38,695 nt of DNA from an uncultured Planctomycetia bacterium (lineage in GTDB: Bacteria; Omnitrophota; Gorgyraeia; Tantalellales; Tantalellaceae), in the NCBI GenBank assembly GCA_964482475.1, contig CAYZXR010000003.1:1-38695 (forward strand). The letters run 5' to 3'. This document shows positions 3,838 through 24,241 of the stretch, piece after piece. The position numbers were made by a program, and so were the translations under genes. The notes below the pieces were generated by a model that saw only the letters and a program-made list of their open reading frames with translations, was not told where the DNA came from and made no database searches. The number at the start of each line of letters is the position of its first letter. The stretch's first letter is position 1.

Positions 3838-4356
3838 CTAACTTCGCATCTCGTTCATAATTTCTTTATCTGTCAGGATTTTTTCATTTGTGCGATAAAT
3901 TACTCCTCCTAATGCACGGCCAATAGTCCAGGCAGAAGCCTCATTAACTTTTATTTCTTTTGACCACGAATTGTCCGGTGTTGACAACAAAACAGTTATG
4001 TACATTCTTACGACAGCAAAACCTTGCACCGACCTCAAATTAGATATTTTTACCAGTAGTTCATTAGGACTTGTGGGGGATATTTCAACGCCTCTGTCTT
4101 GAAGTTCTTCTGACAGTTCATCAATCAAAAATTGTGTCCATTCATTAAGGTCCGCGGCCAAGCCGCTATAGAAACTAAGTGGTGTTGCATCAGGTTGGTT
4201 GTTGATAAGATTGACAGAGTAATCTTCAGGAAAGGGACCTACAAGATCGGTAGGAAGCTTCATTCCTGAACCGGGATGTAAAGTTGTGACACATCCCGAC
4301 AAGGCAATAACTGCAATACAAAGGATGATTGTCCTTAGCATGATAGATCTGAACAT
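3838..4356 (-). CDS. Lipoprotein of unknown function
   Basis: 172 aa. Signal peptide with lipobox ALSGC. AAGGAG upstream of the ATG. Confidence 0.65.
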   Translation of the reverse strand: MFRSIMLRTIILCIAVIALSGCVTTLHPGSGMKLPTDLVGPFPEDYSVNLINNQPDATPLSFYSGLAADLNEWTQFLIDELSEELQDRGVEISPTSPNELLVKISNLRSVQGFAVVRMYITVLLSTPDNSWSKEIKVNEASAWTIGRALGGVIYRTNEKILTDKEIMNEMRS

Positions 4357-4374: not shown

Positions 4375-4821
4375 TTAGGTTTTCCTCGAAAGGGCAAACT
4401 CCCCTTTTGCGACTGTTGTTTCGCCCACTTTGCTTTCAACGGAAACTTTTACCATATTCCCATATGATGCTATTACATTAGCTGTAGATTGCACTTCTTG
4501 TCCAGGGAACACAGGGGCTTTGAATTTCATATCCATGACACGCGACAGGTAAAACACCGCAGAATTCTCTTTAGATTTTTTTTCACTCGTTAAAGTGCTT
4601 GATGTGGCAATGCCTGCAGTTTGAGCCATGCTCTCTATAAGCAATACACCCGGAACTATTGGGTTCCCGGGAAAATGGCCTTTGAAATATTCTTCTTTTT
4701 CGTCAAATATTTTTGAGGTAGTCACACTGTTCTCATCTGCTTGTAAGATTTTATCTACAAATACAAACGGAGGCCTGTGTGGTAACAAATCTGCTATGTC
4801 AAATTTTGTCAGATCATTCAT
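4375..4821 (-). CDS. fabZ: 3-hydroxyacyl-ACP dehydratase, FabZ/FabA hot-dog family
   Basis: HRPPFVFVDKI and GHFPGNPIVPGVLLIESMAQ motifs. I place the start at the internal ATG 4821 (MNDLTKF...), which overlaps the ACP stop as ATGAATGA. The longer ORF to 4884 would overlap the ACP gene by 71 nt. Confidence 0.85.
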   Translation of the reverse strand: MNDLTKFDIADLLPHRPPFVFVDKILQADENSVTTSKIFDEKEEYFKGHFPGNPIVPGVLLIESMAQTAGIATSSTLTSEKKSKENSAVFYLSRVMDMKFKAPVFPGQEVQSTANVIASYGNMVKVSVESKVGETTVAKGEFALSRKT

Positions 4822-5083
4822 TTTCTTGCTGTTTTTCCCTAATATAATTGACCATGCTATCAACTGAAACAAGTACTTTTGCACCTACTCCCGCATCGGG
4901 GATCCTTACCTTGAATCTTTTTTCCAACGCGACAACCAGCTCCAGCGCGTCTATAGAATCCAGACCTAAACCTTCCCCAAAAATCTTATCATCATTTTTT
5001 ATTTCTTCCGGCGCAATCTTTAATCTCAAATCTTGTACCAGCATTACCTTTACTTCTTCGTAAAGTTTTTGACTTTGTTCCAT
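4814..5083 (-). CDS. Acyl carrier protein
   Basis: 89 aa. Phosphopantetheine site LGLDSIDALELV. AAGGAG upstream of the ATG. Confidence 0.9.
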   Translation of the reverse strand: MEQSQKLYEEVKVMLVQDLRLKIAPEEIKNDDKIFGEGLGLDSIDALELVVALEKRFKVRIPDAGVGAKVLVSVDSMVNYIREKQQENE

Positions 5084-5143: not shown

Positions 5144-5806
5144 TTATTGTTCCTTTGTGCTTCTATATTGTAACTTTTTTATAACAAAAGGTATTGTTCC
5201 CAGTGCAAACATGAGTAAAAGAGACAGCTTGAATCCCCAGCTATGCGGAAAGAAAATTCTGCTTCCAAAATACGTATATAACAAACTCATAGGAATGAGT
5301 GCTATCAAGCTTGATAAATAAAAATCTCTGAATTTCATTTGTGAGCATCCTGCCCAATAACTTACCAGATCCCAAGGCACATTAAAAAACCGCATACTTA
5401 AGACTGTGTTTTTGCCGTATAGTTTAATCCAATTGTCTAATTTTTGTGTCGATTTCCATGAACCGCATAAACGCTGTAGAGTCTCCTTTCCTGCCCATCT
5501 AGCGAAATAGAAACCTACACAGGTAGAAAAGGCTCCACCTATTACAACATATACCGTTCCCCAGACAGGGCCGAATAGCACTCCCGCTACGATTGAGAGT
5601 CCCAGTGTTGGTATGAAAAAAAGAAGCGGTCGAAAGCTGCAAATTAAAATGAAACAAACGGGAGCGACCGTTCCATATCGGGTGATGAATTCGGCAATTA
5701 CATCCGGGTTGAAGACCTTGTAGTATTTTATGCCTATAAATAACAAGACCACAATTACTAAAGATTTCATTAAAACAGATATTTTCAGATGCTTAAATAG
5801 GTTCAT
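5144..5806 (-). CDS. DedA / TVP38-TMEM64 family integral membrane protein
   Basis: 220 aa, multi-TM. VAGVLFGPVWGTVYVVIGGAFSTCVGFYFARWAGKE is typical of the family. Confidence 0.7.
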   Translation of the reverse strand: MNLFKHLKISVLMKSLVIVVLLFIGIKYYKVFNPDVIAEFITRYGTVAPVCFILICSFRPLLFFIPTLGLSIVAGVLFGPVWGTVYVVIGGAFSTCVGFYFARWAGKETLQRLCGSWKSTQKLDNWIKLYGKNTVLSMRFFNVPWDLVSYWAGCSQMKFRDFYLSSLIALIPMSLLYTYFGSRIFFPHSWGFKLSLLLMFALGTIPFVIKKLQYRSTKEQ

Positions 5807-5808
5807 TT

Positions 5809-7245
5809 CTACAAAATCACCATCTTTTTATTCGTTATTGACGAAACTGTTTTTAAAGCGGAAATGGCGACTGGAAGCATCCCTCCGCCAAAACCTGCCC
5901 AGTGTCCAACCACGTGAAAATTATTCATAATCTTACAGAGAACAGGAAGATTCATATAGAACCCTGCTTTTTGACTCCATCCATATGCAGCACCGTTAGA
6001 GTTGCCCGTGTATCTTAAGAAAGTCCCCGCATCGGCAACGCGCCGTAGAGTTATGCACTCTGAAAACCCCGGGATGATTTTATTTACAGATTCTATCAAG
6101 CTATCCGCTATTCTGTTCTTATCAACTAGCGCCCTCTCTTCACACAAAGGGCAGTGAATAATAAACGTATGACATCCGCGGGGAGCAGTTGTAGAATCAC
6201 TAATGGAAGGGATGCTCAACCCATAAGAGATATTTTCGTTTATGTTCAGCATATCATCTGTTTCATATGACGGAAAATATCCAATGCTACTGGCAATTTT
6301 GTGTTCATCAAGATCTATCTTAGCGCCGATATACGCAATTACAAAAGAACCGGAGACTTCCATATCTTTTATTTTTACTGCTTTTTTCTCTTCTATCTCG
6401 TCGCTGTCGATCATAGTGTTTACAACCGTTTTTAAGTCGATGTCTGAAATAATATGTTTTGCCTGAAATTCTTCGCCGGTTTCTGTTTTAATACCTATGG
6501 CTATGCTTGCATTCGAAAGTATCTTTTTTACGGTTTTACCATAAAAGACTATGCCGGAATTTTTCTCAATAACCTTAACTAAAGCCTCTGCCAGATTTTG
6601 CAGTCCACCCTTTACTCTGAATGCCCCTCCCTCAAGATAATGCATCAAAGTGTTTACCGCCAGAATAGAAGAAACCTGAGATGAAGGTAATCCTAAAAAA
6701 TTACAATAAGACGAAAGTGCCGCCTTAAGTTTCTTGTCGGAGAGGTAATCATCCAAAATCGCCGCAAAAGGTTTCCCCAGCCAGTTATAATGCGCGCTGA
6801 TGCCGTTGTTTGTGCCGCTAAAAATAGAAGCTACTGATTGTTTGTATATATTCCCCATGAGGGAAAATAAAGAATTGATCCCTTCTATCTCTGACGGGAA
6901 TAGTTTGCTGAGAGTCTCCTTATATTCGGTGGTGCTCCCAGGGATATCTATTGTGAAGTTGGGGAAAATATTCCGTCTTATGGGTTCAAGAGGAATAAAA
7001 TCCAGTTGTGTTTCAATGTCTAGCTCTTTTAAAATACCCCGTATGATCTCTCCGTCCTTCATAGCGCCCATAGCATCAACAGCTACGTCGAATGTATGTC
7101 CTCCACTCTTGAATGAGGCACAAAGCCCTCCCGCGTAGTTCTCTTTTTCGAAAATAGCGACCCGATACCCTTCTTTGGAAAGAAGGGCAGCTGAGATCAA
7201 CCCTCCGAACCCGGCACCTATCACTATGACATCATACTTTTTCAT
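5809..7245 (-). CDS. FAD-dependent oxidoreductase, phytoene desaturase (CrtI)-like family
   Basis: 478 aa. N-terminal Rossmann motif DVIVIGAGFGGLISAALLSKEGYRVAIFEKENYAGG. Length and C-terminal GHW..GGG pattern fit the CrtI/RetSat-like family. Confidence 0.8.
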   Translation of the reverse strand: MKKYDVIVIGAGFGGLISAALLSKEGYRVAIFEKENYAGGLCASFKSGGHTFDVAVDAMGAMKDGEIIRGILKELDIETQLDFIPLEPIRRNIFPNFTIDIPGSTTEYKETLSKLFPSEIEGINSLFSLMGNIYKQSVASIFSGTNNGISAHYNWLGKPFAAILDDYLSDKKLKAALSSYCNFLGLPSSQVSSILAVNTLMHYLEGGAFRVKGGLQNLAEALVKVIEKNSGIVFYGKTVKKILSNASIAIGIKTETGEEFQAKHIISDIDLKTVVNTMIDSDEIEEKKAVKIKDMEVSGSFVIAYIGAKIDLDEHKIASSIGYFPSYETDDMLNINENISYGLSIPSISDSTTAPRGCHTFIIHCPLCEERALVDKNRIADSLIESVNKIIPGFSECITLRRVADAGTFLRYTGNSNGAAYGWSQKAGFYMNLPVLCKIMNNFHVVGHWAGFGGGMLPVAISALKTVSSITNKKMVIL

Positions 7246-7247
7246 CT

Positions 7248-7997
7248 TTAGGTGAGACCCCCGTCTATTGCCAATACAATCCCTGTAATGTAACTCGCTG
7301 CATCAGAAGCTAAAAATAGAACCCCACCTGAAATTTCTTCAGGCTTGCCGAAGCGTTTTAATGGAATCTTTTCTAGAAATGTCTCGCGTTTATCCGCCAG
7401 ATCTTTTACCATATCTGTTTCTATGAAACCGGGCGCGATTGTGTTTACTTGAATACCGTATGGTGCTAGCTCCAATGCTAAAGATTTCGTAAAACTTATC
7501 ATCCCTCCCTTTGAAGCGGAATAATTGGTTTGACCCGCGACTCCCTTTAAGGCACTGACAGAACTTATATTTATTATTTTGCCCGCACGTTGGCCGATCA
7601 TCATCCTGGAGACCCACTTACATATGTGATACAACCCCTTAAGATTAACATCCTGAACCAAATCCCAATCTTCTTCGCTCATCATTGCGAGATATACATC
7701 TCGCTTTAAACCGGCATTATTCACAAGAATATCAATGTGACCGTATTTTTCAGTAATTTCTGCCATCATCTTTTCAATGTCCTCTTTACTTCCTATGTCA
7801 GCACGCACTATCTCTATCTTGTGCCCCTGCTCCGTCAACTCTTCCTCCAAACTATGCGCCATTTTTTCACTTTTATTATAATTAGCTATAACTTGAGCAC
7901 CCGCTTGAGCGAAGGAAATAGCAAGAGCTCTTCCTATACCCCTACTGGCGCCCGTAATTAAAACAACTTTGTTTTCAAATTCTCCTATTCTTTTCAT
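7248..7997 (-). CDS. fabG: 3-oxoacyl-ACP reductase (SDR), FabG-like
   Basis: TGASRGIGRALA, NNAG and YSASKGG motifs. The start is moved to ATG 7997, which has AGGAGG upstream and overlaps the upstream stop as TGATG. Confidence 0.9.
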   Translation of the reverse strand: MKRIGEFENKVVLITGASRGIGRALAISFAQAGAQVIANYNKSEKMAHSLEEELTEQGHKIEIVRADIGSKEDIEKMMAEITEKYGHIDILVNNAGLKRDVYLAMMSEEDWDLVQDVNLKGLYHICKWVSRMMIGQRAGKIINISSVSALKGVAGQTNYSASKGGMISFTKSLALELAPYGIQVNTIAPGFIETDMVKDLADKRETFLEKIPLKRFGKPEEISGGVLFLASDAASYITGIVLAIDGGLT

Positions 7998-9373
7998 CAC
8001 TTGCCTCCTAAGTAGCCCCACAAAGGTCCATCATGATAGTATTTTCTCAAGATTTCATACATTTTGTCCGAACTTTTTATTCCCATTCCGGGAACAATAC
8101 ATTTAGGATTACCGCTCGCGAATTCTGAAACCTTTTTCAATAATGTATCGTGAGGAATATTTTTAGATAAATAAAAATGTGGTGTCAAAAGATCGTTTTC
8201 TTCAGAGATGATCTTTTCTTTGAGTGCCAGATTTTCCAGAGCGGTTCCGGGATAAATCCTTATTCCCACCATAGCTATAATCGCGTTACATTCCAGGCGT
8301 TCTATGTTATCAAACGCTTCCTGCAATGTTTCGATCGTTTCTCCCGGACCGCCGAACATAACATAATGAGCGTATTTTATTCCGGATTCTTTGCATAATT
8401 TTGAAGTTTTGAATACATCATCCAACGTAAAAGACTTTCCGAGTTGGGATAAAACCTTAGCAGACAGCGCGTCGGTTCCGAATTCGATGTTTTCGCAGCC
8501 TGATTTCTTCATAAGCTTTAACAAATCCTCGGTCATATTTAGCGGATTTGCGAAACAGCTCCATTTTGCGGTAAGTTTTTTCTTTATTATGCTTCGGCAG
8601 ATATCTTCCGCGTGGTCTGCCGGAAAATTAAAAATATTATCAACGAAGAAAAAATGGTTTATATTATATTTTTTGTGAGCCTGCTCTATTTCGTCAGCGA
8701 CAATTTCCGGGTCACGTAATCGGTATTTCTTACCTTCCAAAATCGGGTATGTGCAATAACTGCAACTAAATTGGCATCCGCGTTTGGTCTGGATGTTTCC
8801 CATGCCCCCGGAGGCAGAATAGAACTTATTATCTACCAAATCTCTATCAACAACATAATTGCTATTCTCTTCATGAGTTACTCTGTTTGTGTGTAGTTTG
8901 CCTTCTTTAACCCAGATTACGTTATCAATATTACTGAAATCTTTTTTGCCGAGTTCAATTGACCTAAGAAGTTCTGGTAGCGCGTTCTCTCCTGCGCCTA
9001 TAACGCCTATGTTGCAATTTAAGTGTTTCAGTAGTTTTTCCGGAAATATGGAAAAAGCTGAACCTCCTAAAATGACAGGAGCTTGTGATTGTTCGTGTAA
9101 ACTATCGATTGTTTTCTTGATATCAGTAAGATACGAAATTATTCCGGGATAACTGAGGTTGTCGATATTGCGGATCGAAGCACCTATTACATCAGGGGAA
9201 AACTCCGAAAAAGCTTTTTTGATAGTAGAAGCTATATCATAACTGGTACATAGGTCGACCATGCGTACTTCATGCTTTTCTCTTCGAAGGACTTCCGTCA
9301 AATACAGAATACCCAACGGTGCCACCGGATAAGGTTTTTGTTCCCTATTTACTGAAACTAATAAAATTTTCAT
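7997..9373 (-). CDS. B12-binding-domain (class B) radical SAM enzyme
   Basis: 458 aa. N-terminal MKILLVSVN...PLGILYL B12-binding-type domain and CX3CX2C motif KRGCQFSCSYCTY. ATGA overlap with the upstream gene. Confidence 0.85.
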   Translation of the reverse strand: MKILLVSVNREQKPYPVAPLGILYLTEVLRREKHEVRMVDLCTSYDIASTIKKAFSEFSPDVIGASIRNIDNLSYPGIISYLTDIKKTIDSLHEQSQAPVILGGSAFSIFPEKLLKHLNCNIGVIGAGENALPELLRSIELGKKDFSNIDNVIWVKEGKLHTNRVTHEENSNYVVDRDLVDNKFYSASGGMGNIQTKRGCQFSCSYCTYPILEGKKYRLRDPEIVADEIEQAHKKYNINHFFFVDNIFNFPADHAEDICRSIIKKKLTAKWSCFANPLNMTEDLLKLMKKSGCENIEFGTDALSAKVLSQLGKSFTLDDVFKTSKLCKESGIKYAHYVMFGGPGETIETLQEAFDNIERLECNAIIAMVGIRIYPGTALENLALKEKIISEENDLLTPHFYLSKNIPHDTLLKKVSEFASGNPKCIVPGMGIKSSDKMYEILRKYYHDGPLWGYLGGK

Positions 9374-10677
9374 TTAATCATCTTGGCAATTTTTCTTATT
9401 GTTAAATTAAACCCAATATTCATCGGCCAAACAAAAGATTTGAGCGCTGTTGTATTTTTTAACCGTCTAAACATGCTTTTTAATGAATATGCTCTTTTGT
9501 ATGCCCACAAGTACCCGTCTTTTAATTCTTTCTCTGTCATATTCTTTGGTTTGAATACGACATTAGATGTATCATAAAGCTCCCAATTGCAATGATGAAG
9601 CCGACCTTCTTCCTTGTATTGATCGTAAAATCTTGTTCCGGGATATGGGGTTAAAATGCCCAGATATATTCCCTCCAGTTTTGCTTTTTCCACGAATTCG
9701 ATACATTTCGCGAAAATGCTTGTATCATCCCCGTCAAATCCAAAAACAAAAGCTCCCATTATTCCCAGACCATAACTATGGATTTTCTCCACGGACTCTA
9801 GGTAATCGGAGACTTTATTAGCTTTTTTAGCGACATCCTTAAGGACATCATCAGACAATGATTCAAACCCTATAAGAAATCCCATGCAGCCACTATCGGC
9901 GGCCAGTTGCAATAGTTCATCGTCTTTGGCTACATTTATTGAAGCCTGTCCGAGCCAATTAAGTTTATACGGTTTAATTTTTTTGAATAGTTCTTTAGCA
10001 TGTTCTCTGTTACCGATAATGTTATCATCAACAAAGAATACGGTATTTTTAATACTGAATCTTCTTTTTGTTGTTTTAAAGGTCTTTATTTCATCAACAG
10101 CGTCATCAACGGGACGAAGTCTGTATTTTCCTCCAAAAAAACGGGTAACAGAACAAAAATGGCAACCAAAAGGACATCCTCTTGTCGTTTCGACAAACTC
10201 CACCGGTGCGCATTTTTCCTTGTTTACAAGATCTCTTCTAGGAGGTATCAGTTCTGTTAAATTCATAAATTCATCTGCTTGATATGTTTTCTGAAGTTTT
10301 CCGTTTTTCACATCTTCAAGCAGTAACGGCCAGATCTTTTCACCTTCACCTATGACAACGGAGTCCGCGTGTTCCAAAATCTCATTTGGAAGCGCACTGG
10401 CATGCATCCCGCCCATTACAACCTTTATCCCTTTTGTTCTGAATTCATCGGCAATCTGATAGGCCCGCGGAGCAAGAGGGGTCATAACTGTTATTCCGAC
10501 AAGGTCGTATTTTTCATCAAAATCAATTTTATCGACCCTTTCATCAATCAGTACAATTTCCACATCCTTTGGAGTATATGAAGCCAGAGTGATAAGACCT
10601 AGAAACGGGAGATTAAAGGCAAAAGATTTACCCAAAACATTGTTTGACGCAATCGGTAACACTAATAATATTTTCAT
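9370..10677 (-). CDS. B12-binding-domain (class B) radical SAM enzyme, second copy
   Basis: 435 aa. DLVGITVMTPLAPRAY..GIKVVMGG B12-type domain and CX3CX2C motif TRGCPFGCHFCS. ATGA overlap. Confidence 0.85.
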   Translation of the reverse strand: MKILLVLPIASNNVLGKSFAFNLPFLGLITLASYTPKDVEIVLIDERVDKIDFDEKYDLVGITVMTPLAPRAYQIADEFRTKGIKVVMGGMHASALPNEILEHADSVVIGEGEKIWPLLLEDVKNGKLQKTYQADEFMNLTELIPPRRDLVNKEKCAPVEFVETTRGCPFGCHFCSVTRFFGGKYRLRPVDDAVDEIKTFKTTKRRFSIKNTVFFVDDNIIGNREHAKELFKKIKPYKLNWLGQASINVAKDDELLQLAADSGCMGFLIGFESLSDDVLKDVAKKANKVSDYLESVEKIHSYGLGIMGAFVFGFDGDDTSIFAKCIEFVEKAKLEGIYLGILTPYPGTRFYDQYKEEGRLHHCNWELYDTSNVVFKPKNMTEKELKDGYLWAYKRAYSLKSMFRRLKNTTALKSFVWPMNIGFNLTIRKIAKMIK

Positions 10678-11711
10678 TTGTTAACCTTCCAGCATGTTGG
10701 ATCACTCGCGAGATAATCCCCGGTAAGTGCATATGCGGTTCCTCGACACCCATAACATTCATCGTTTAAATCGCATGTTTTGCACGGTCCTTTTATATTT
10801 TCTTTAATGTTGCACAGATCACGATGTACTTTGTTGTTTTTTAAAATATTCTTCAGTTTTTCTTCTCTGATGTTGCCCATTTTAATATCTATACCAACAC
10901 ATGGGAGAACATATCCTTGGGAGTTGATCAGACAGCTGTATAAATGTCTTTTGCAGGAAAACCCTGCGATGGGAGGATGCGGTTTCCAGTACAGGCCGTA
11001 TTCATCGGCGTCAATTTTCGCTAAAGTTTCAAAAATTTCCTGTGTTTCTTGTTTGGTGATTAAAAGATCCTCTCTGTTGGTCGCAAGGCCAACTCGTGTT
11101 AGGCATTCCATGTATGGCATAATTTCTCTTTCTCGCGCCCAGCGCCATATATTAGGGATATCTTCGATATTTTGTCGGCATATGACGCTTTCTATGCAAA
11201 GAATATGATTCTGGTCGGGATAACCCGCCTCAGAAAGGGATTCCATCCCTCTTTGCATTGAATCATACGATCCGCTGACTCCAGTAAGCCAGTCATAGAT
11301 TTCTGGATTTAAACTGTTATATTTCACGACTACCGTAAGATTGTTTTCATAGAAGAGTTGAGCTGTTTTTATGTCGATTAAAGTGGCGTTTGTAAATAGA
11401 ATATGGTCCATTTTTAACTTGTGTACATATTTCATAATGTCGATAAACTTAGAGTCTAGAAGCGGTTCCCCCGCGCCAAGATAAATTATCTTTCGAGCAC
11501 CCAATGCTTTAGCCTGGCTGATAATGTCATACATCTCTTCGATTTCAAGTTCATCTCTTTTTAGAAATTCGGCGCCTGAATAACAATAGACACATCTTAA
11601 ATTGCACCTACTGCCGAATTCAATTTCAAGTGACAAAAGAGCATCATTTTTGAGGTTTGTGTTTATCTCTTTGTCGCTGAATCCGAAGACATTTCTGAAA
11701 TTTTTAATCAT
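10674..11711 (-). CDS. Radical SAM enzyme with C-terminal SPASM-type Cys cluster
   Basis: CX3CX2C motif GSRCNLRCVYCY. C-terminal CLINSQGYVLPC ... CKTCDLNDECYGC ... C pattern. The start is uncertain: ATG 11711 (overlap ATGATTAA with the upstream stop), 11723, or the full ORF start 11813, which would overlap the ligase gene by 110 nt. Confidence 0.8.
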   Translation of the reverse strand: MIKNFRNVFGFSDKEINTNLKNDALLSLEIEFGSRCNLRCVYCYSGAEFLKRDELEIEEMYDIISQAKALGARKIIYLGAGEPLLDSKFIDIMKYVHKLKMDHILFTNATLIDIKTAQLFYENNLTVVVKYNSLNPEIYDWLTGVSGSYDSMQRGMESLSEAGYPDQNHILCIESVICRQNIEDIPNIWRWAREREIMPYMECLTRVGLATNREDLLITKQETQEIFETLAKIDADEYGLYWKPHPPIAGFSCKRHLYSCLINSQGYVLPCVGIDIKMGNIREEKLKNILKNNKVHRDLCNIKENIKGPCKTCDLNDECYGCRGTAYALTGDYLASDPTCWKVNK

Positions 11712-13017
11712 AATTTGCTCCATGTTGTCTGTTATCAATAAACATCCGTATTTTTCTTCTGTTTTCGCCGTTGGTTTGTAACCATTCAACTTCCTTGATA
11801 GATACCAACTCAACTTCCGGGGTAACTCGTGCGTGTGCTTCGATTTTTCTCAAAACTTCTTCCTTTATCCTTTTATGCTTTCGCTTGCAACCTATCTTAA
11901 CTACTATCTTGTCTGTATAGTTATCTCCAGTATATGCTTCTACAATATGGTTGTGTACTCCTTTGATGCTTAGCACAGCGTTTTCTATAGTTTTCGGGTA
12001 GAGTTTAACTCCTTTAAACTTCATCATTTGAGCTTTTCTGCCGAGGATTGGACCGATCCTGGAAGAATTACGGCCACATTTACATTTTCCTGTCAGTTTA
12101 AATGTTATATCCCCGGTTTTATAACGCAATAGCGGCATTCCTCTGCTTTGAAGTGTTGTAAGAACCAGTTCTCCGATCGTTCCATCCGGTACGGGATTGT
12201 CATCATCATCCAGGATCTCTGATATGATTAAATCAGGGTGTTCATGTCCACCGGTTTTTTCTTTACATTCACAGAAAGAAATTCCGCATTCACTGTTACC
12301 GTATGTTGAATATAAATCCACTGGCCATTTTTTAGATATAAGCGAACCCAGTCTATTTAAACTAAAATCCTCATTTCTAATGCTTTCACCAACCAGCAGA
12401 GCTTTTTTAATAGAACTCTTTCGGGGGTTGCCCCCTTCCCCTTCAATTGCATCAGCAAGCTTTAAAAGAAAAGAAGGAACAGTAACTATCCCCGTAGGGG
12501 TAAGTTGTTGTATAAGTTGCTCTTGTTTCTTCACATTACGCATTCCCGCCCGAAAAACAGTCGCTCCAAGCTGAGTTATCCCCAGATAATACGCCATTCC
12601 CGCCATAAATAAGTTGTCAAGTGTGACTGCTATATGAAATTTATCTTTTTTAGTCACACCGGCGCAATAAAAGCTCCGTTCCTCATTTAAGGCCAATCGA
12701 TTCAAATCCGACGCGGTAAGCGCAATGAACACCGCTTTACCAGTCGTGCCAGTAGTAGAAACTATTTCGACTATATCATCTACTCCATCGCAGAAAAACT
12801 TACGGTTATTTTTCTGTATCTGGTTTTTTGTTGTAATAGGCAGCTTTTGAATATCATTCAGATTCTTTATGCTTTTGACTAAAGAGGTCATTTTGCTCAA
12901 CCTCTTTTTATAAAAAGGTGAATGTTTCGTTACATATTTTATTGTTTCTTTGAGATATTCAACCTGGGCTTTTTCTATATGAGCCCTGCTTTTAAACTCC
13001 AGCTTTTTTGTGTCCAT
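11704..13017 (-). CDS. Adenylate-forming enzyme of the phenylacetate-CoA ligase (PaaK) / coenzyme F390 synthetase family
   Basis: 437 aa. P-loop-type motif VSTTGTTGKAVF, with the length and layout of the COG1541-type family. Confidence 0.75.
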   Translation of the reverse strand: MDTKKLEFKSRAHIEKAQVEYLKETIKYVTKHSPFYKKRLSKMTSLVKSIKNLNDIQKLPITTKNQIQKNNRKFFCDGVDDIVEIVSTTGTTGKAVFIALTASDLNRLALNEERSFYCAGVTKKDKFHIAVTLDNLFMAGMAYYLGITQLGATVFRAGMRNVKKQEQLIQQLTPTGIVTVPSFLLKLADAIEGEGGNPRKSSIKKALLVGESIRNEDFSLNRLGSLISKKWPVDLYSTYGNSECGISFCECKEKTGGHEHPDLIISEILDDDDNPVPDGTIGELVLTTLQSRGMPLLRYKTGDITFKLTGKCKCGRNSSRIGPILGRKAQMMKFKGVKLYPKTIENAVLSIKGVHNHIVEAYTGDNYTDKIVVKIGCKRKHKRIKEEVLRKIEAHARVTPEVELVSIKEVEWLQTNGENRRKIRMFIDNRQHGANYD

Positions 13018-13031
13018 CTTTTTTGTTGCTC

Positions 13032-14021
13032 CTATTTTTTCATCACGACAGATATATGACTTCCATAACTGTCTTCATTTACAAATAAAATTTCCGTGGG
13101 CACAATGTCCCCATAGCGCTCTTTCAAAACTTTATTGCCTTCTAAAAATGAATTTCCTAACATTATACCTAATACCCCGGAAGCGGAAAATGTATTTCCG
13201 AATATGGAGCCCAGATCAACATGCAGACCTGATTTATCCCCGATTTTCTCTTCATCATCTTCTATTGTGAAGCTTCGCCCAAAACTGCTGCCCTTGTTTA
13301 TAAGTACATGTCGAATCTCATCCTTTGAACCGTCGCTTTCCCTGAAGCCATGATAAGGTTGCTCTATTTTGGCGTACATGCTTTTCCCAGCAGTTTTCGT
13401 ATCTTCCGCTCTTTCAAGTACGACAGCAGCACAACATTCCTGGCGAAACCCGCAATTATTCAATTCGACATCAAAATCATCGCAAAAGAAATTAGTTCCC
13501 ATAATAATGACTACGTCTGTTTTTCCCAAGGCAAGAAGATCTCTGCCCGCTATCATTGCTTCAGACGCAGCTGTTACTCCATTAGAAAAAGTAATATTGG
13601 TTCCTTTTATCCCAAACAAAATAGATAAGCTGGCAGAGACAGCATTAGCGGCCGTATAGGGAAAGACTGAGGGGCTGGTAAGCTCTGGCTCGCTTTCTTT
13701 GAATATCTTAAAAAACCCTGATTTAAATTCTTCTATTTCGTATGAACTGCCGAATAAAATTGATACTCGGTCAGCGTTCTTTTCAGTTATCTCAATCTGT
13801 GCGGCTTTGAGAGCTTTTAGCAAAGTAAGAGCCGCAATCTTCTGAACACGGTACATTTCATAAGGACCTTTTTGCATGGTATCAATCTCTGTCTGAAACA
13901 TTGAAGGATCTATTTTCGGGGTAATCTCCTCACCCTTCAACATCGCGTCAAGCCAAGGGTTCAGTCCTTCACCTAAACTTGTAATGCAGCTTGATCCACT
14001 TATTACTATGTCCTGATTCAT
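13032..14021 (-). CDS. Ketosynthase-like protein lacking the catalytic Cys/His (chain-length-factor-like partner)
   Basis: 329 aa with thiolase-fold-like sequence. SNGVTAASEA sits where KS enzymes have ACxS. No HGTGT or GHxxGA motifs. Lies immediately downstream of a complete KS. Confidence 0.7.
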   Translation of the reverse strand: MNQDIVISGSSCITSLGEGLNPWLDAMLKGEEITPKIDPSMFQTEIDTMQKGPYEMYRVQKIAALTLLKALKAAQIEITEKNADRVSILFGSSYEIEEFKSGFFKIFKESEPELTSPSVFPYTAANAVSASLSILFGIKGTNITFSNGVTAASEAMIAGRDLLALGKTDVVIIMGTNFFCDDFDVELNNCGFRQECCAAVVLERAEDTKTAGKSMYAKIEQPYHGFRESDGSKDEIRHVLINKGSSFGRSFTIEDDEEKIGDKSGLHVDLGSIFGNTFSASGVLGIMLGNSFLEGNKVLKERYGDIVPTEILFVNEDSYGSHISVVMKK

Positions 14022-14026
14022 AATCT

Positions 14027-15235
14027 CTATTCTTCCTTGAAAATTAAAACGCTGTTCTGCCCGCCAAATCCGGCAGCTTGCACCATCGCCATATTAACCT
14101 TTGTTTCACAAGATCCTTCAGTTACATAATTCAAATCACAATCGATATCAGGCGTTTTGTAATTTATTGTCGCCGGAATGATGTTGTCTTTAATCGCTTT
14201 TATACAGCATATAGCACCCAAAACGGCTGACGCACCCATAGTGTGTCCAATCATGGATTTTATCGCGCTTATTTTAGGCGATTTCGAGTCTTCTCCAAAG
14301 GCCAGTTTTATTGCTTTTGTTTCCGCCAAGTCATTATGATGTGTGCCAGTTCCATGTGCGCAAATGTAATCAATATCCCGCGGTTGTACTCGGGCGTTAC
14401 TTATCGCTTCTGAAATGGCTCTTGCTAATCCTTTTCCCTCCGCATGGGGACGAACAAGGTGATATGCGTCAATAGTTGAGCTTTCTCCCGCCAGGGTGCA
14501 ATATATATCTGCATTACGCGCCAAAGCGTGCTTTTTCTCTTCCAGGACGAGAACACCCGCACCTTCTGAAACGGCTAACCCTGTACGGTTTTTATCAAAA
14601 GGCCGCACTTTTCCGTCTTTAGTGAGGGCGCCGATAGCACTAAATCCTCTAAACAAAAATTCACTTAATATTTCAACTCCGCCTGCTAACATAATATCCG
14701 CGCGACCGTTCCTGATCTCATTCGCGGCCAAGAGCACGGCGTCGCTGCTGGAGGAACAAGCTGTGTTTAGCGAAAAATTTGGACCTTTAAAATTAAATAA
14801 TTCCGCCACAAATCCCGGGACAGCCTGCATCGAAGATCCTTTTAGAAGTTTATGATCCTTTTTCTTGTCTGTGAAAAATGCCTTTTCCAGATATTGCTCT
14901 TCGAGATCGATACAGCCCAACACGCTTCCACAACAAATACCAACTCTACCGACATTCCCAAGTATTCCGGAATCTTCGACAATTTGCTTAACCGCTAAAG
15001 TAAACAGCTTGACTGCCCGGCTATGATCATCGGGTACCAACCCTTTTAGGTGTTTTTCAAGCCCAACCAGTTCACCGCCAACCTGGCATTCAAATCCTTT
15101 TACATCAATAGATTCGATAGCCTTAAGCCCGTTATCTCCGCGGCACAGGCCCTGCCAGAAAGCGTCAACTCCTCTTCCATTATCTAACGGAGTTACCGCG
15201 CTTATCCCTGTTACAACTATTGTTTTGTCGGCCAT
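14027..15235 (-). CDS. Beta-ketoacyl-ACP synthase (FabF/FabB family)
   Basis: 402 aa. Active-site motifs NTACSSSSDA, AHGTGT, GHTMGASA and GFGGQNS. Confidence 0.9.
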   Translation of the reverse strand: MADKTIVVTGISAVTPLDNGRGVDAFWQGLCRGDNGLKAIESIDVKGFECQVGGELVGLEKHLKGLVPDDHSRAVKLFTLAVKQIVEDSGILGNVGRVGICCGSVLGCIDLEEQYLEKAFFTDKKKDHKLLKGSSMQAVPGFVAELFNFKGPNFSLNTACSSSSDAVLLAANEIRNGRADIMLAGGVEILSEFLFRGFSAIGALTKDGKVRPFDKNRTGLAVSEGAGVLVLEEKKHALARNADIYCTLAGESSTIDAYHLVRPHAEGKGLARAISEAISNARVQPRDIDYICAHGTGTHHNDLAETKAIKLAFGEDSKSPKISAIKSMIGHTMGASAVLGAICCIKAIKDNIIPATINYKTPDIDCDLNYVTEGSCETKVNMAMVQAAGFGGQNSVLIFKEE

Positions 15236-16309
15236 TTATATAACCCTTTTTCTTTTCCAAAACTCCCTATATACCTTAAAATATAGAATTGAACCTATTT
15301 GACGCACTAAAGATCTTAACAATGATCTGTCACCTAGACATTTTTGACAATATGGATGAACAACCTTTAACTTGTCAAAACCGTGTATTACTTTTTGAAC
15401 TTCGTCTTTTTTTAATGCTTCGATTATCGATATGTCTTTGATGTTTCCGAAAGCTGTCTCTCCGTTATAATCCACACAGCAGAAACTTAAATCCCCATTC
15501 CACAACACACTGAAATGGTCTCGCAATCCGTGGCAATATCCTATTTTTGCTTTGCTTATTTGTTCATCACGTAACCCCGCATGCACCCAATCACCCATTA
15601 CACGTGCTTCCAATATGAATTTGTCGGTTAGCTTAACCTGGCTCCATCCTAGTACATTAAGTCTGAGTAGTTGCTTTTCGACATCTTGCCGATTCTTGAG
15701 CAGTTCTTCTTTAATTGCGGTGTCTTCTATTTTTTCGGTTATAATGTCTATCCACTGGCAAAAATATTCTTTCAATTCTTTATTGCTATCAATTACTTTT
15801 GTGTCACAACCCGGCATAAGAACTTTTCTGAATGGTGTTGTCAGAAAGGATAGCGCTACATGAGTTTTGCGGCTATTTTCTAATATCCTGGCAATTGAAG
15901 ATGATATTATAGTTTGGTATTCATTGAACATCATATTTGCTTTTCGCAGTTTGAAAGATTGCTTCTCCGGGGTCTGAGCCGAAAAAATGATATGGTCAAT
16001 ATTGCTTTCAGCCAGTTTCATGGTCTTTTCATTTGTCATCAACGAGCCGTTTGTGGTAAGACACACTCTTAATCCCTTGCTATGTATGTAGTTAATAGCT
16101 TCGGTAAGATATTCACATAAAAGCGGTTCTCCCATTACATGCAACAATATTGTACTGGTCAGTTGTTCTCTCGATATCTCATCTATTGCCTTCTTGAAGA
16201 GATCGAACTTCATATCTCCTCGTTCTCTGGACATTATTTCATCCGGACAGAACTGACACGCAAAGTTACATTTATTTGTTAATTCAACATGTATTCGTTC
16301 AAATTTCAC
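15236..16309 (-). CDS. Radical SAM enzyme with partial SPASM/twitch-like C-terminus
   Basis: 357 aa. CX3CX2C motif TNKCNFACQFCP. C-terminal WNGDLSFCC and YCQKC patterns. Its stop is directly abutted by the next ATG (TAAATG). Confidence 0.85.
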   Translation of the reverse strand: MKFERIHVELTNKCNFACQFCPDEIMSRERGDMKFDLFKKAIDEISREQLTSTILLHVMGEPLLCEYLTEAINYIHSKGLRVCLTTNGSLMTNEKTMKLAESNIDHIIFSAQTPEKQSFKLRKANMMFNEYQTIISSSIARILENSRKTHVALSFLTTPFRKVLMPGCDTKVIDSNKELKEYFCQWIDIITEKIEDTAIKEELLKNRQDVEKQLLRLNVLGWSQVKLTDKFILEARVMGDWVHAGLRDEQISKAKIGYCHGLRDHFSVLWNGDLSFCCVDYNGETAFGNIKDISIIEALKKDEVQKVIHGFDKLKVVHPYCQKCLGDRSLLRSLVRQIGSILYFKVYREFWKRKRVI

Positions 16310-17321
16310 TTTCGTAGCCTCCCAACAAAAGACTGCCTATCGATCCTAGCTTAGTAAAACTTTGTACCTGTATTTTACTCTGTTTTTCTTTGAATACCTT
16401 TAGAACAGCAAGAATTACTTTAAACGCTTCACCCGCTGTGAATGTGGACGCGAATTTATCCGAATAATCAATTACCGGGATTGTTTCCTTTGCCTTTTTT
16501 AAGATCATATCCATTCCCTGGCGGCATTCTTCGCTATCCCAGCACGATGTTATTATTTGTCCGGGGGTTTCCTCTTTCACTAGACCATTCAATATTTCTC
16601 GATAGCTTTCTATTTGAGAATAGTTCAGAGTATTAACTTCCATTTCTAAAAGTTGGGCATATGGTTTTGCGGATCTTTCTTTCACGGATCGCGAAGATTC
16701 AAGGACAATAACACCGCTCCCGCCAAAACTATCCGATATCTTCCTACTATCCCTTGAGCAATTGCGATAAGACTCGGCAAGAACATCGTTATAGACGTCT
16801 ACACCGCCCACTACGCAGACATCAATGACACCTTCGGTAATTAGTTCTCCGCCACACTTTATAGCCTGTAAAACAGCATTGTATCCGGTCAATGTTGTCA
16901 CGGGTCCGCAAATTTTGAATATGTTCCCTACATAACTTGCCATTGTATTCGGCAAAGAGTTGGAGAAAAGCAAAGGGCTAACCATATGCGCGTCTCCGAT
17001 GACCATCTCTTGATGATATTCCAATGTATACGCAAGCGGACCATGTGTAGTTGCCATCACCATGCCTGTCTTTTCAGGTGCGTATTTCTTCAGGTCTACG
17101 CCGGCGTCATCTATTGCCATTTTAGCGGCAACAGCCGCGAAGCAAGAGTTTTCATCCGCGCGGCGGAGCATTGTTGTGTCTATATAATCATCAAGACTAA
17201 AATCGGACATCTTCTTTTTGACTCCATCCGAACGATCGAAGAACTCTGTAAACTCAAGTTTCCCCGCGCCGAAGTCACCTATGCAGCCTACTCCTGTTAT
17301 GAAAACACTTTTACTTTTCAT
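16299..17321 (-). CDS. Ketosynthase-like protein lacking the catalytic Cys/His (second CLF-like partner)
   Basis: 340 aa. TGYNAVLQA at the position of the active-site Cys, and no HGTGT. 11-nt overlaps on both sides. Confidence 0.7.
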   Translation of the reverse strand: MKSKSVFITGVGCIGDFGAGKLEFTEFFDRSDGVKKKMSDFSLDDYIDTTMLRRADENSCFAAVAAKMAIDDAGVDLKKYAPEKTGMVMATTHGPLAYTLEYHQEMVIGDAHMVSPLLFSNSLPNTMASYVGNIFKICGPVTTLTGYNAVLQAIKCGGELITEGVIDVCVVGGVDVYNDVLAESYRNCSRDSRKISDSFGGSGVIVLESSRSVKERSAKPYAQLLEMEVNTLNYSQIESYREILNGLVKEETPGQIITSCWDSEECRQGMDMILKKAKETIPVIDYSDKFASTFTAGEAFKVILAVLKVFKEKQSKIQVQSFTKLGSIGSLLLGGYESEI

Positions 17322-18534
17322 CCAATTTCCTTAATATAACACTGCTATTTGATCCACCGAATCCGAACGAATTAGACAATACGGTTTTTATTTCTTTCTG
17401 TTCGGCCTTCTCTCCTACTATATTTAAGTTACAGTCCGGGTCAGGTGTTTCATAGTTTAGATTTCCTGGGACAATACTTCTATTAATCGCAATCAAAGAA
17501 AAAATCGCCTCGGCGGCGCCCGCGGCACCCAGCATATGTCCGGTCATGGGTTTTGTGGAGCTTACCGGTATTCTTCTGCCACCTTCACCTAAAGCGGAAA
17601 CAATCGCTGTTGATTCCATAGAATCATTGGCAAGCGTTCCCGTGCCATGCGCGTTAATATAGTCAATGTCTTCCGTTTTTATCCCAGTTGTTTCGGTAGC
17701 TGTTTTTATAGCCTCACTAGCTCCTTTTGCCTCGGGATCTGGACTTGTAAGGTGATACGCGTCTGACGTTTGACCAAATCCTATGATTTCCGCTAAGATA
17801 TGGGCTCCTCTTTCTCGTGCGTGATCCAGCTCTTCCACTACAAGAACACCTGCCCCTTCACCCAAAATTAATCCGCTTCTATTCTTATCAAACGGGCGGC
17901 ATTTTCCCGGTGTTATAAGCTGTAGTGAATTAAACCCGGCGTACGTAAACTCCGACATAACATCATATCCACCCGCAATAGCAAAGTTCTCATAACCGTT
18001 GCGTATCCTTCTGAAAGCAAGCCCCAGAGCGTTTGTCCCTGACGCACAGGCATTATTCAGAATAAGCGCTTCTCCCGCAAAATCAAATTTTTTGGCAATA
18101 TTCACAGCCTGATTACATGCAAGGTAATCTTTAAGAAATAGCGCTCTCTTTTTTTCATTTTGTTTTAATACATAATCCCTGTGAAACATCTGACCCTGTA
18201 ATGTTCCGCCCAATGTAGTTCCCAAATAAACAGGTGTTTTGGAAAACCGCAATTCATCTAAGTTTGCCGAAGCGGAGAAAAGAGCATCTTTACATGCGGT
18301 ATAAACAAGGTGCGTAGCTCTGTCCAGCCCGAGCTTTCCTTCTTCGTCAAGATCCATATCAATAAGGGAGTCTTGCACCACACCCCCATCTCCCGAAGCG
18401 AAGTTGTTTGTAGTAAAAGTTTTTATTTGGGACAATTTACTCTTTCCGTGAAGAAGTGAGTCGTACGTCGCATCAAGCCCTCTTCCCAGACTGGTTAATA
18501 TGCCCGCTCCTGTAATGACTACCCGCTTAATCAT
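17311..18534 (-). CDS. Beta-ketoacyl-ACP synthase (FabF/FabB family)
   Basis: 407 aa. Motifs NNACASGTNA, AHGTGT, GHMLGAAG and GFGGSNS. Start overlaps the upstream stop as ATGATTAA. Confidence 0.9.
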   Translation of the reverse strand: MIKRVVITGAGILTSLGRGLDATYDSLLHGKSKLSQIKTFTTNNFASGDGGVVQDSLIDMDLDEEGKLGLDRATHLVYTACKDALFSASANLDELRFSKTPVYLGTTLGGTLQGQMFHRDYVLKQNEKKRALFLKDYLACNQAVNIAKKFDFAGEALILNNACASGTNALGLAFRRIRNGYENFAIAGGYDVMSEFTYAGFNSLQLITPGKCRPFDKNRSGLILGEGAGVLVVEELDHARERGAHILAEIIGFGQTSDAYHLTSPDPEAKGASEAIKTATETTGIKTEDIDYINAHGTGTLANDSMESTAIVSALGEGGRRIPVSSTKPMTGHMLGAAGAAEAIFSLIAINRSIVPGNLNYETPDPDCNLNIVGEKAEQKEIKTVLSNSFGFGGSNSSVILRKLDEK

Positions 18535-19414
18535 CTTTCTTTTTCCAAAGGTTTGTAAAGTTATACCACTGGTCAGAATACTTCAATATGTACTGTTCAA
18601 AGATCCGGACTAATTTTTCAGTATTTTTCCGAATATCTTCCTCAGTATTATCGGTAAATTCCATTTCGACTATAGAATCAGCTATCGCTGTATACTTGCC
18701 CTGATCGTCCGATACAATAAAGGCGGGTATAATTGCCGCACCCGTGCTTTTGGCAAGTTGTACTGGTCCGATAGGGAAAAATGTTGGTTTTCCAAAAAAA
18801 TCGACTTTTACACCGCGCTGACCTTCATATCTGTCTATAAGCATTGCGACTATTTCGTTTCCCAGAAGAGCGTTTACGATATCAATAAAAAACAAAGAAT
18901 CTTTTTTAATGGTTATAGTTTTTATGTTTCGGGTTTTTCTGCTATTTTCCCGGATTTCAGCGACGCCTTTTATCTCATCCTGCGCGGTAATAACATTAAT
19001 GGGTATTCCCTTGTAACTAAAAAAGAGTCCCCCCAGCTCCCAATTGCCAAGATGTGCTGTTAAAAGGATGATTCCTTTTCCAGCGTTAAGCGCTTTACGA
19101 ATAACTTCTTCTCCTTGAAAAGAACTGAACCAATTCCCCAGCTTATCCATGTCTGCATGATTGAGTTTAGCCCAGTCGGCTATATATTCTCCGTAATTCA
19201 AAAAAATATTTTTTGTTGTCTTTTCTATTTTTTTGGGATCATTGTATATCTGAGCGAGGTTTTGTTTAACATTATCTCGAGCCTCTTTGAATAAATGGTA
19301 CCCCATAAGAGCACCCATTTTCGCCACGCCCCTGATAATACCTATCGGCAAAACTTTGGCAAGCTGAACGGCTGCTTTGTAGATATAATCTTTGTTCAAA
19401 AAATTTCTTTTCAT
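18527..19414 (-). CDS. LpxL/HtrB-type (lysophospholipid / lipid A biosynthesis) acyltransferase
   Basis: 295 aa. LLTAHLGNWELGG (HX4E catalytic box) and the overall layout of the Lip_A_acyltrans family. ATGA overlap. Confidence 0.8.
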   Translation of the reverse strand: MKRNFLNKDYIYKAAVQLAKVLPIGIIRGVAKMGALMGYHLFKEARDNVKQNLAQIYNDPKKIEKTTKNIFLNYGEYIADWAKLNHADMDKLGNWFSSFQGEEVIRKALNAGKGIILLTAHLGNWELGGLFFSYKGIPINVITAQDEIKGVAEIRENSRKTRNIKTITIKKDSLFFIDIVNALLGNEIVAMLIDRYEGQRGVKVDFFGKPTFFPIGPVQLAKSTGAAIIPAFIVSDDQGKYTAIADSIVEMEFTDNTEEDIRKNTEKLVRIFEQYILKYSDQWYNFTNLWKKKDD

Positions 19415-24172: not shown

Positions 24173-24241
24173 GTTCCACCTTTCCCATTCTTTCATTGTA
24201 TGCAGTTTAATGCAATCTAATACATACTAATCGCAATGAAC

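Follow-up and report, generated by a model that had tools for sequence, protein, structure and literature searches.

A ladderane-type lipid operon of Omnitrophota with a core pair and an accessory pair of radical SAM enzymes

The operon and its four radical SAM genes

Contig CAYZXR010000003.1 (assembly GCA_964482475.1), from an uncultured bacterium placed among the Omnitrophota by its GTDB lineage, was analysed over positions 1 to 38,695, the whole stretch being called the window hereafter. Nearly all of it is transcribed from the minus strand, on which all the window genes named below lie, and a lipid operon extends over about 1786-23960 with junctions that overlap or abut throughout. In order of transcription its first half encodes an ATP-grasp ligase, a deacetylase, an MMPL exporter, an LpxL-type acyltransferase, a ketosynthase (KS_A) with its chain-length-factor-like partner (CLF_A), the radical S-adenosylmethionine (SAM) enzyme rSAM4, a second pair (KS_B and CLF_B) and a ligase, while the second half encodes rSAM3, rSAM2, rSAM1, FabG, a CrtI-like protein, a DedA/VTT protein, an acyl carrier protein (ACP), FabZ, a lipoprotein, two secreted paralogues and a SAM methyltransferase. 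The operon belongs to the 'ladderane-type' lipid clusters that are widespread among anaerobes (the kuste3335-3352 gene set), and its radical SAM enzymes form two pairs that are evolutionarily distinct, a core pair (SPASM rSAM3 and TsrM-like rSAM1) and an accessory pair (twitch-like rSAM4 and DUF4070 rSAM2).

A preliminary description of this DNA had placed four radical SAM open reading frames (ORFs) on the minus strand at 7997-9373 (rSAM1, 458 aa), 9370-10677 (rSAM2, 435 aa), 10674-11711 (rSAM3, 345 aa) and 15236-16309 (rSAM4, 357 aa, GTG start), and all four are confirmed, as are the junctions of rSAM4, an 11-nt overlap at 16299-16309 and an abutting TAAATG at 15235/15236, both checked base by base. 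The longest ORF of rSAM3 extends to a TTG at 11813 (10674-11813). Its start is nonetheless the ATG at 11711, as first described, because the orthologue in the closest genome has 345 aa; in a base-by-base reading this ATG overlaps the stop codon of the ligase gene upstream, giving ATGATTAA at 11704-11711. The Pfam domains of all four enzymes score above the curated cut-offs (29.5 bits for Radical_SAM, PF04055; 32.1 bits for the B12-binding domain, PF02310). Radical_SAM scores are 81.2, 67.8, 74.6 and 55.0 bits for rSAM1 to rSAM4, B12-binding scores 55.8 bits for rSAM1 and 45.2 bits for rSAM2, which also matches DUF4070 (25.3 bits), and SPASM scores 35.0 bits for rSAM3 and 42.2 bits for rSAM4. 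The CX3CX2C motif is present in all four and invariant among their orthologues, so that alignment removed none of the cysteines on which the assignment had been based. In rSAM1 and rSAM2 an N-terminal B12-binding domain is fused to the radical SAM domain, which bears out the two adjacent class B enzymes described earlier; both are class B radical SAM enzymes with predicted cobalamin binding.

Only rSAM1 passes a curated NCBIfam model, TIGR04072 ('lipid biosynthesis B12-binding/radical SAM protein'), which it matches over its full length with 413.9 bits against a cut-off of 360, while rSAM2, with only 87.4 bits, falls outside the family; a literature search on TIGR04072 found nothing. The AlphaFold (AF2) model of rSAM1 (pLDDT 92.6) aligns in Foldseek with TsrM, a tryptophan 2-C-methyltransferase, at a TMq of 0.90, and the rSAM1 family profile matches TsrM with 194 bits spanning both domains. 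The NCBIfam model of TsrM itself is not passed (160 bits, cut-off 500), nor is that of BzaD, the next best match after TIGR04072 (248 bits, cut-off 450). Both TsrM and BzaD methylate sp2 carbons (PMC12931638). The lower-axial Arg69 of TsrM has its equivalent in an invariant R68 of rSAM1. At the position of Glu273, which in TsrM caps the cluster and blocks SAM binding (PMC12931638), rSAM1 has Ile247, and at that of Glu236 an invariant Tyr209. Lacking both glutamates, rSAM1 is probably TsrM-shaped but equipped with a canonical, SAM-bound and radical-generating cluster, and these residue-level clues to a TIGR04072 enzyme predicted to resemble TsrM in fold and not in cluster ligation are new. An extra auxiliary Fe-S cluster, considered for five further conserved cysteines of rSAM1, was dropped, since C293 and C327 are common to TsrM, which has no auxiliary cluster.

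The second class B enzyme, rSAM2, is only 25% identical to rSAM1 and belongs to a large family of its own, with members of about 50% identity in Desulfobacterota and Nitrospirota, and on both grounds a recent duplication of rSAM1 was rejected. Its best solved relative is the glutamine C-methylase MgmA (PDB 9ccb, 79 bits). The suggestion that these enzymes might be methylases of the HpnP/HpnR type did not hold: the two score 95 and 78.5 bits on HpnR (cut-off 650) and 110 and 117 bits on HpnJ (cut-off 577.6), the latter value being the top, albeit weak, NCBIfam match of rSAM2, and HpnP is not among the best 25 NCBIfam families listed for either. As to the broader expectation that class B enzymes methylate or rearrange carbons, methylation is plausible here.

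The reference SPASM pattern comprises seven cysteines, CX9-15GX4C ... CX2CX5CX3C ... C, ligating two auxiliary clusters. Eight C-terminal cysteines are invariant in rSAM3 (C253, C260, C271, C310-x2-C313-x5-C319-x2-C322 and C340), and the pattern can be read from them as C253-x12-G-x4-C271, C310/C313/C319/C322 and C340, invariant in 8/8 orthologues, with a last spacing of x2 in place of x3. The full two-auxiliary-cluster pattern thus upholds the designation of rSAM3 as a SPASM-type enzyme. Its best family matches, AhbD, NirJ2 and PqqE, lie far under their cut-offs.

The pattern of rSAM4 is partial, as had been noted. Across 34 family members only five C-terminal cysteines are invariant (C259-x12-G-x4-C277-C278 ... 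C321-x2-C324), the CX5CX3C part and the final cysteine being absent, so that rSAM4 fails the seven-cysteine test in spite of its Pfam SPASM score, and no NCBIfam model is passed. Its AF2 model (pLDDT 91.4) carries a conserved, basic and amphipathic C-terminal helix and has BtrN, the twitch dehydrogenase of butirosin synthesis, as best PDB fold match (Foldseek, E 3e-12, TM 0.46/0.65), followed by DesII, BlsE and anSME. BtrN is also the best match in sequence, with 50 bits over the N-terminal 120 residues. The similarity, known from sequence and fold matching, is modest; the cysteines of rSAM4 resemble a BtrN-type twitch, whose auxiliary-cluster ligands we take to be C ... C ... CxxC. By contrast with BtrN, rSAM4 is about 90-110 residues longer, has an inserted helical region, the basic C-terminal helix and a fifth invariant cysteine, and sits in a lipid cluster and not in an aminoglycoside cluster. 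BtrN, DesII and BlsE modify aminocyclitols and sugars and are not cross-linkers, and the earlier generalisation that SPASM/twitch enzymes usually form crosslinks is too narrow. The proposed kinship with lipid couplers of the Tes/GDGT-MAS type could not be recovered either: rSAM4 matches GDGT-MAS (PDB 7tol) with 20 bits (E 0.0026) over its N-terminal 105 residues only and ranks it 40th in Foldseek (TMq 0.34), and rSAM1, rSAM2 and rSAM3 give no match.

An exact copy of rSAM4 was found only on short metagenome contigs. The idea that its family is very rare was nonetheless rejected, the family being modest in size: a word-based search returned 98 matches, a metagenome scan at least 585, and phmmer 123 representative clusters at E<=1e-30. 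In a neighbour-joining tree all cluster-linked rSAM4 proteins group in one clade, apart from stand-alone homologues of 33-37% identity that occur outside lipid clusters, one of them in a Nitrospinaceae genome. In 22 loci (L005, L041, L044, L051, L052, L054, L056, L057, L068, L070, L073-L076, L078, L080, L081, L083 and L086-L089) the stand-alone gene comes directly after that of a CmoA-like SAM methyltransferase, and in most of them a LeuA-like gene lies upstream. This company, outside lipid clusters, points to a different, housekeeping-type role for the stand-alone clade.

These homologues are one reason to consider that the SPASM and twitch enzymes could be maturases of ribosomally synthesised and post-translationally modified peptides (RiPPs), or of proteins or cofactors, that merely lie beside lipid genes. 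Another is a set of weak NCBIfam matches, to a tungsten-cofactor oxidoreductase maturase (89 bits), AhbD/NirJ (118-122 bits) and PqqE (94 bits). We regard this explanation as highly improbable. The weak scores lie three- to five-fold under the curated cut-offs, and RiPP models in particular reach 30-104 bits against cut-offs of 265-850. The overlapping or abutting genes of the operon leave no room for a precursor-peptide gene, and the flanking gap is free of conserved small ORFs. Across phyla rSAM3 always has the ligase and a B12 enzyme as its neighbours, and the lipid-cluster rSAM4 proteins form a clade of their own. The RiPP orthology with an overlooked precursor gene, against which the preliminary description had cautioned, was therefore not found.

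Core and accessory pairs in related loci

In total 93 loci (L numbers below) were collected and their ORFs compared with the window proteins. The closest species-level genome, L004, is the Black Sea Candidatus Omnitrophota metagenome-assembled genome (MAG) BS750m-G21, whose rSAM4 is 76% identical and whose gene order is the same as in the window for all 16 genes that it covers. The window order recurs in L004, L008, L014, L016 and L017 with protein identities of 46-84%, and the arrangement is therefore not due to chance. In these loci and the window (layout O) the genes run rSAM4, KS_B, CLF_B, ligase, rSAM3, rSAM2, rSAM1, ketoreductase (KR, FabG), CrtI-like, ACP and dehydratase (DH, FabZ).

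A second arrangement (layout N), that of Nitrospirota-type clusters, was found in L013, L024, L026, L031, L036, L037, L043, L066, L072 and a contig represented by L028 plus L009. Its first block comprises LpxL, DedA, an rSAM4-like gene (35-38% identity), the gene of a 190-aa secreted protein, an rSAM2-like gene (46-53%), ATP-grasp and deacetylase. A chain-building block holds KS_A, CLF_A, a methyltransferase like AmxMT1, KS_B, ligase, rSAM3, rSAM1, KR, ACP and DH, and a tail holds a phosphopantetheinyl transferase (PPTase), a methyltransferase, MMPL, CrtI-like and a glycosyltransferase. The rSAM4-like gene precedes the rSAM2-like gene in the ten layout N loci, with LpxL (mostly together with DedA/VTT) upstream and ATP-grasp and deacetylase downstream, and from both to ACP, KR and DH the distance is five to eight genes; in L013 this module occurs without any KS gene in the 15.6 kb covered. 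The accessory pair thus keeps company with LpxL, DedA, ATP-grasp and deacetylase. The preliminary description had stressed that the fourth enzyme is wedged between the two KS/CLF pairs, which is true of the window but is a feature of the Omnitrophota layout and not of the rSAM4 family, since layout N orthologues adjoin instead the second B12 enzyme, LpxL, DedA, ATP-grasp and deacetylase.

The core pair behaves differently from the accessory pair. Orthologues of rSAM3 and rSAM1 (43-77% identity) are present in 7/7 related loci that reach this part of the cluster, including L011, a Kiritimatiellia cluster whose only two radical SAM genes are this pair. Across phyla they follow the starter ligase and precede KR-ACP-DH, with rSAM2 standing between them in layout O, and the rSAM3 orthologue (48-76% identity) comes directly after the ligase in L004, L008, L009, L010, L011, L014 and L017. 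All four radical SAM families belong to the cluster family across phyla, the recognition of a core pair as against an accessory pair being new, as is the compact four-enzyme layout of Omnitrophota without an AmxMT1-type methyltransferase. The latter enzyme (Kuste3347 in Kuenenia) occupies the same slot between KS pairs as rSAM4 does here; its replacement by rSAM4 was considered and rejected, because in layout N (L024, and L028 plus L009) the same cluster contains both the methyltransferase and an rSAM4 orthologue.

In some relatives the radical SAM genes number five or more. L026, L036, L043, L066 and L072 have a second class B gene of the rSAM2-like kind between ATP-grasp and deacetylase, and in L066 and L072 there is a third, distant rSAM2-like gene on the opposite strand.

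The remaining operon genes and the ladderane-type cluster

The operon starts with the ATP-grasp ligase (22794-23960; Pfam ATPgrasp_Ter and ATP-grasp_3), whose orthologues adjoin a deacetylase gene in L004, L009, L010, L013 and L024 among others. It is followed by a NodB-type polysaccharide deacetylase with a DUF3473 domain (21743-22801; Pfam; 269.8 bits on NCBIfam TIGR03006, below the cut-off of 276.2), an MMPL/RND lipid exporter resembling HpnN (19411-21741; Pfam MMPL; 279 bits on the HpnN model, under its cut-off) and an acyltransferase of the LpxL type, or lipid A family (18527-19414; Pfam Lip_A_acyltrans, 131 bits). Both KS/CLF pairs described earlier are real. By alignment KS_A (17311-18534; Pfam, with FabF-like PDB matches including 9s5h_B) and KS_B (14027-15235; Pfam) keep the catalytic cysteine and both histidines, which are absent from CLF_A (16299-17321) and CLF_B (13032-14021; Pfam). 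CLF_A consists of the N-terminal KS domain only and matches PDB 6smo_C, a 371-aa chain likewise limited to the ketoacyl-synthase N-terminal domain. The ligase between the second pair and rSAM3 (11704-13017) is an adenylate-forming starter ligase like FlxY and PaaK, matching NCBIfam FlxY over its full length with 481.5 bits (below the cut-off of 520); it also matches the 'DVU_1553 family AMP-dependent CoA ligase' (180.6 bits against 300).

Downstream of rSAM1 lie the 3-oxoacyl-ACP reductase FabG (7248-8021; TIGR01830, 306.8 bits against a cut-off of 297.75), a flavoenzyme like CrtI/phytoene desaturase (5809-7245; Pfam Amino_oxidase; NCBIfam crtI_fam, 130.9 bits, under the cut-off), a DedA/VTT-domain membrane protein (5144-5806; Pfam VTT_dom) whose gene adjoins the rSAM4-like one in layout N loci, the ACP (4814-5083; Pfam PP-binding, with a DSI motif in its sequence) and the FabZ-type 3-hydroxyacyl-ACP dehydratase (4375-4884; NF000582, 118.9 bits against 113). 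The true start of the last is probably an internal ATG, and its orthologues have ApeP/ApeI-like Pfam matches. The gene families of the operon confirm that its radical SAM enzymes are embedded in an acyl-ACP pathway resembling type II fatty acid or polyketide synthesis. None of the operon genes was recognised as coding for an enoyl reductase.

The operon ends with a predicted lipoprotein (3838-4356) whose signal peptide terminates in LSGC and which has no Pfam or NCBIfam match, two paralogous secreted proteins of 190 and 199 aa with a weakly BamE-like C-terminus (2631-3802), and a class I SAM methyltransferase (1786-2625; Pfam Methyltransf_23) in the position of Kuste3338, with orthologues of 41-43% identity in L009 and L010. 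Homologues of the secreted paralogues lie between the rSAM4-like and rSAM2-like genes in L013 (3687-4274 of that locus) and after the rSAM4-like gene in L021 (from about 11036), and these proteins may be a fixed partner of the rSAM4/rSAM2 pair. The methyltransferase weakly matches the 'DVU_1556 family methyltransferase', and this and the DVU_1553 match of the ligase may point to a related gene set of Desulfovibrio that is curated separately.

Clusters of this type have been known since 2006-2009 from Kuenenia (kuste3335-3352) and Desulfotalea (PMC2649909), and the window operon is not a new kind of system. The Kuenenia gene table lists a deacetylase-like protein (3351), FabF and a non-canonical FabF (3349/3348), a SAM methylase (3347), FabF (3346), a phenylacetyl-CoA ligase (3344), two SAM radical proteins (3343/3342), FabG (3341), ACP (3340), FabZ (3339), a methylase (3338), a phytoene desaturase (3336) and a glycosyltransferase (3335) (PMC4790861). 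The window contains the corresponding series ligase-radical SAM-B12 radical SAM-FabG, pairs of a KS with a non-canonical KS, ACP, FabZ, the CrtI-like protein, a methyltransferase and a deacetylase, in the same families and the same relative order as Kuenenia and as Desulfotalea psychrophila DP1853-1860; its deacetylase takes the position of Kuste3351 and its ligase that of Kuste3344, annotated 'phenylacetyl-CoA ligase'. Unlike both, it has four radical SAM genes within the chain-building block and an Omnitrophota host, and it is without the PPTase and the glycosyltransferase seen in L009 and L010. The Kuenenia design is found in full on the Dissulfurispiraceae contig (L009 plus L028), where gene order matches kuste3335-3352. 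Clusters labelled 'ladderane' by antiSMASH have already been reported, and found to be expressed, in Omnitrophota MAGs from the Cariaco Basin.

That label, the membership of rSAM1 in a family whose model name refers to ladderane and a gene order matching that of Kuenenia could be taken to mean that the operon makes true ladderanes and that Omnitrophota are a second ladderane-producing lineage. We consider this very unlikely, and a ladderane is not expected as the product. The cluster type is shared by Omnitrophota, Nitrospirota, Desulfobacterota, Kiritimatiellia and anammox Planctomycetota, and Desulfotalea carries it while making no ladderanes (PMC2649909). The features of the anammox 'Cluster I' (amxACP, amxFabZ, amxFabF2/amxFabFmut) are not those of the window: its ACP does not have the consecutive-Phe (FF) motif of amxACP, and its DH is closer to ordinary FabZ (79.6 bits) than to PDB entries of the amxFabZ type (62-69 bits). 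The methyltransferase of L009, which scores 389 bits to AmxMT1 of Brocadia (PDB 8HD2), found no AmxMT1/Kuste3347-type homologue by tblastn in the window, L004 or L008.

A different likeness is to the aryl-polyene and flexirubin-type Ape and Flx clusters, which share with the operon a KS with a short, N-terminal-only CLF-like partner, KR and a FabZ/ApeP-like DH without enoyl reductase, a FlxY-like ligase, an LpxL-type acyltransferase, an MMPL exporter and envelope lipoproteins. FlxY itself has been characterised as a 4-coumarate-CoA ligase. Neither the FlxY nor the FlxB model (265.5 bits against 340) is passed, however, and the window has no gene for a tyrosine ammonia-lyase or another source of aromatic starter. 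Genes for radical SAM, CrtI-like, ATP-grasp or NodB-type deacetylase enzymes are not known from Ape and Flx clusters.

Candidate chemistry, its rivals and the flanking sequence

The best explanation, in which we have moderate confidence, is that of a ladderane-type operon whose core pair tailors the acyl chain while the accessory pair more likely serves the head group. In such a scheme the FlxY-like ligase would load a carboxylic-acid starter, possibly aromatic, and the two KS/CLF pairs with KR and DH, with no enoyl reductase encoded in the cluster, would build an unsaturated acyl-ACP as in aryl-polyene systems. The targets of the core pair would be the starter or the chain on the ACP, with rSAM1 most likely serving as a cobalamin-dependent C-methylase with true radical chemistry and rSAM3 catalysing a redox, decarboxylation or C-C step that needs two auxiliary clusters. 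The LpxL-type acyltransferase would then attach the chain to an envelope acceptor, and the MMPL pump together with the secreted proteins and lipoproteins would see to export. The accessory pair, the deacetylase and the ATP-grasp enzyme would more likely remodel a polar, amino-sugar-like acceptor than the hydrocarbon chain.

The assignment of the accessory pair to such an acceptor is the weakest step, proposed tentatively and with somewhat more doubt than trust. It is suggested by the neighbours of the pair in layout N, by the sugar- and aminocyclitol-modifying relatives of rSAM4 and by the precedent of HpnI/HpnK/HpnJ, the hopanoid head-group route, in which a deacetylase acts first and HpnJ then works on a glucosamine head group. 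That route and the operon have in common a deacetylase, an RND exporter like HpnN and a radical SAM enzyme of class B, whereas HpnJ is unmatched at the family level, the deacetylase here is of the NodB/DUF3473 type and there are no hopanoid genes, so that the comparison is an analogy only.

Several points weigh against the scheme as a whole. The rSAM2 enzyme is distant from HpnJ and MgmA and rSAM4 from BtrN (TM 0.46/0.65). In the window rSAM4 is coupled to CLF_A and KS_B and rSAM2 stands between the members of the core pair, positions that fit chain chemistry equally well. Neither a glycosyltransferase nor a gene for the supply of an aromatic starter is present in the window. The match to Kuste3343/Kuste3342 is one of gene order and of the TIGR04072 model name, not of sequence comparison, and no Kuenenia protein is among the best 120 matches listed. 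When the Kuenenia genes were expressed heterologously, no new lipid appeared (PMC4790861), and no reaction, substrate or product is assigned to any enzyme of the cluster type.

The preliminary description had read the setting differently, as radical chemistry on a growing or finished acyl chain. Extended to all four enzymes, with methyl branching, cyclisation or tail-to-tail coupling leading to a carbocyclic or membrane-spanning lipid, this alternative is in our judgement unlikely, although clearly to be taken seriously. The four genes do share one translationally coupled operon with KS/CLF, ACP, KR and DH, rSAM4 always precedes KS_B in the Omnitrophota layout (L004, L008, L014, L016, L017), and the conserved amphipathic helix of rSAM4 could bind membranes. 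Radical chemistry on a lipid has, moreover, long been proposed for the cluster type (PMC2649909, PMC13459092), reviews suggesting that radical SAM enzymes carry out a cyclisation or ligation in the case of the related anammox clusters. On the other hand, the HpnR and HpnJ families are not matched and there is no detectable relation to Tes/GDGT-MAS beyond the radical SAM core, the structural neighbours of rSAM4 work on sugars and aminocyclitols, and the placement of the accessory pair varies: in the ten layout N loci it adjoins LpxL, ATP-grasp and deacetylase, far from ACP, KR and DH, and in the 15.6 kb of L013 that were covered it stands without a KS gene. The ladderane-free Desulfotalea, with its related cluster, also speaks against it. 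Cyclisation or chain-chain coupling by enzymes of the cluster is conceivable. Polyunsaturated hydrocarbons are normally explained by the Ole/Pfa pathway, and for this reason those of Desulfotalea were not adopted as the product. They had been proposed as such by Rattray (2009).

Under the favoured division of labour, with the core pair on the chain and the accessory pair more likely on the head group, the cluster family may make an undescribed, anaerobe-specific envelope lipid, in which an ACP-built aryl or polyene chain would be tailored by the SPASM and radical B12 enzymes and joined to an amino-sugar- or cyclitol-like head group remodelled by the BtrN-like and HpnJ/MgmA-like enzymes. So specific a product is a speculative and rather improbable proposal; if true, aryl-polyene pigments would have in it an oxygen-independent counterpart whose synthesis involves four radical steps. 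So far, lipids of the fatty-acid type have been proposed to undergo modification by radical SAM enzymes in two cases only, those of ladderanes and of what Jaw5, the jawsamycin enzyme, produces (PMC13459092, a 2026 review). The cluster type, whose function has been a question since the Kuenenia genome (2006-2009), is still the main candidate for ladderane chemistry. The window offers a compact version of it in which one operon unites all four radical SAM families, and the core/accessory split narrows the enzymes to consider for chain chemistry. Similar clusters occur in the cultivable Desulfotalea, Geobacter and Pelobacter (PMC2649909, Rattray et al.), and the spread beyond anammox bacteria opens the question to genetics in cultivable non-anammox hosts.

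A second class I SAM methyltransferase gene (198-1163; Methyltransf_23, 84 bits) lies downstream of the operon across a 620-bp gap and may or may not belong to it. Immediately upstream of the first operon gene a 68-aa ORF (23990-24196) encodes an excisionase/MerR-like helix-turn-helix protein, which could be a regulator or a remnant of a mobile element; as to control by riboswitches or other RNA, Rfam gave no match anywhere in the window. A gene for an IS200-like Y1 transposase (25292-25966; Pfam Y1_Tnp, 53 bits) separates the lipid operon from a giant ORF (27028-38673) of at least 3881 aa with 11 stretches of RHS repeats. The N-terminal part of this ORF is an array of 201-nt (67-aa) tandem repeats at 37820-38695, and since the array reaches the end of the window the gene probably continues beyond it; a giant surface- or toxin-like protein would fit an Omnitrophota origin. 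Short direct repeats occur in the non-coding stretch, a 38-nt unit (24512-24565 and 26373-26410) in copies 1.8 kb apart with 92% identity, and 34- and 65-nt units in two or three copies at about 26.0-26.3 kb (26039-26336), and together they may represent a small repeat element.

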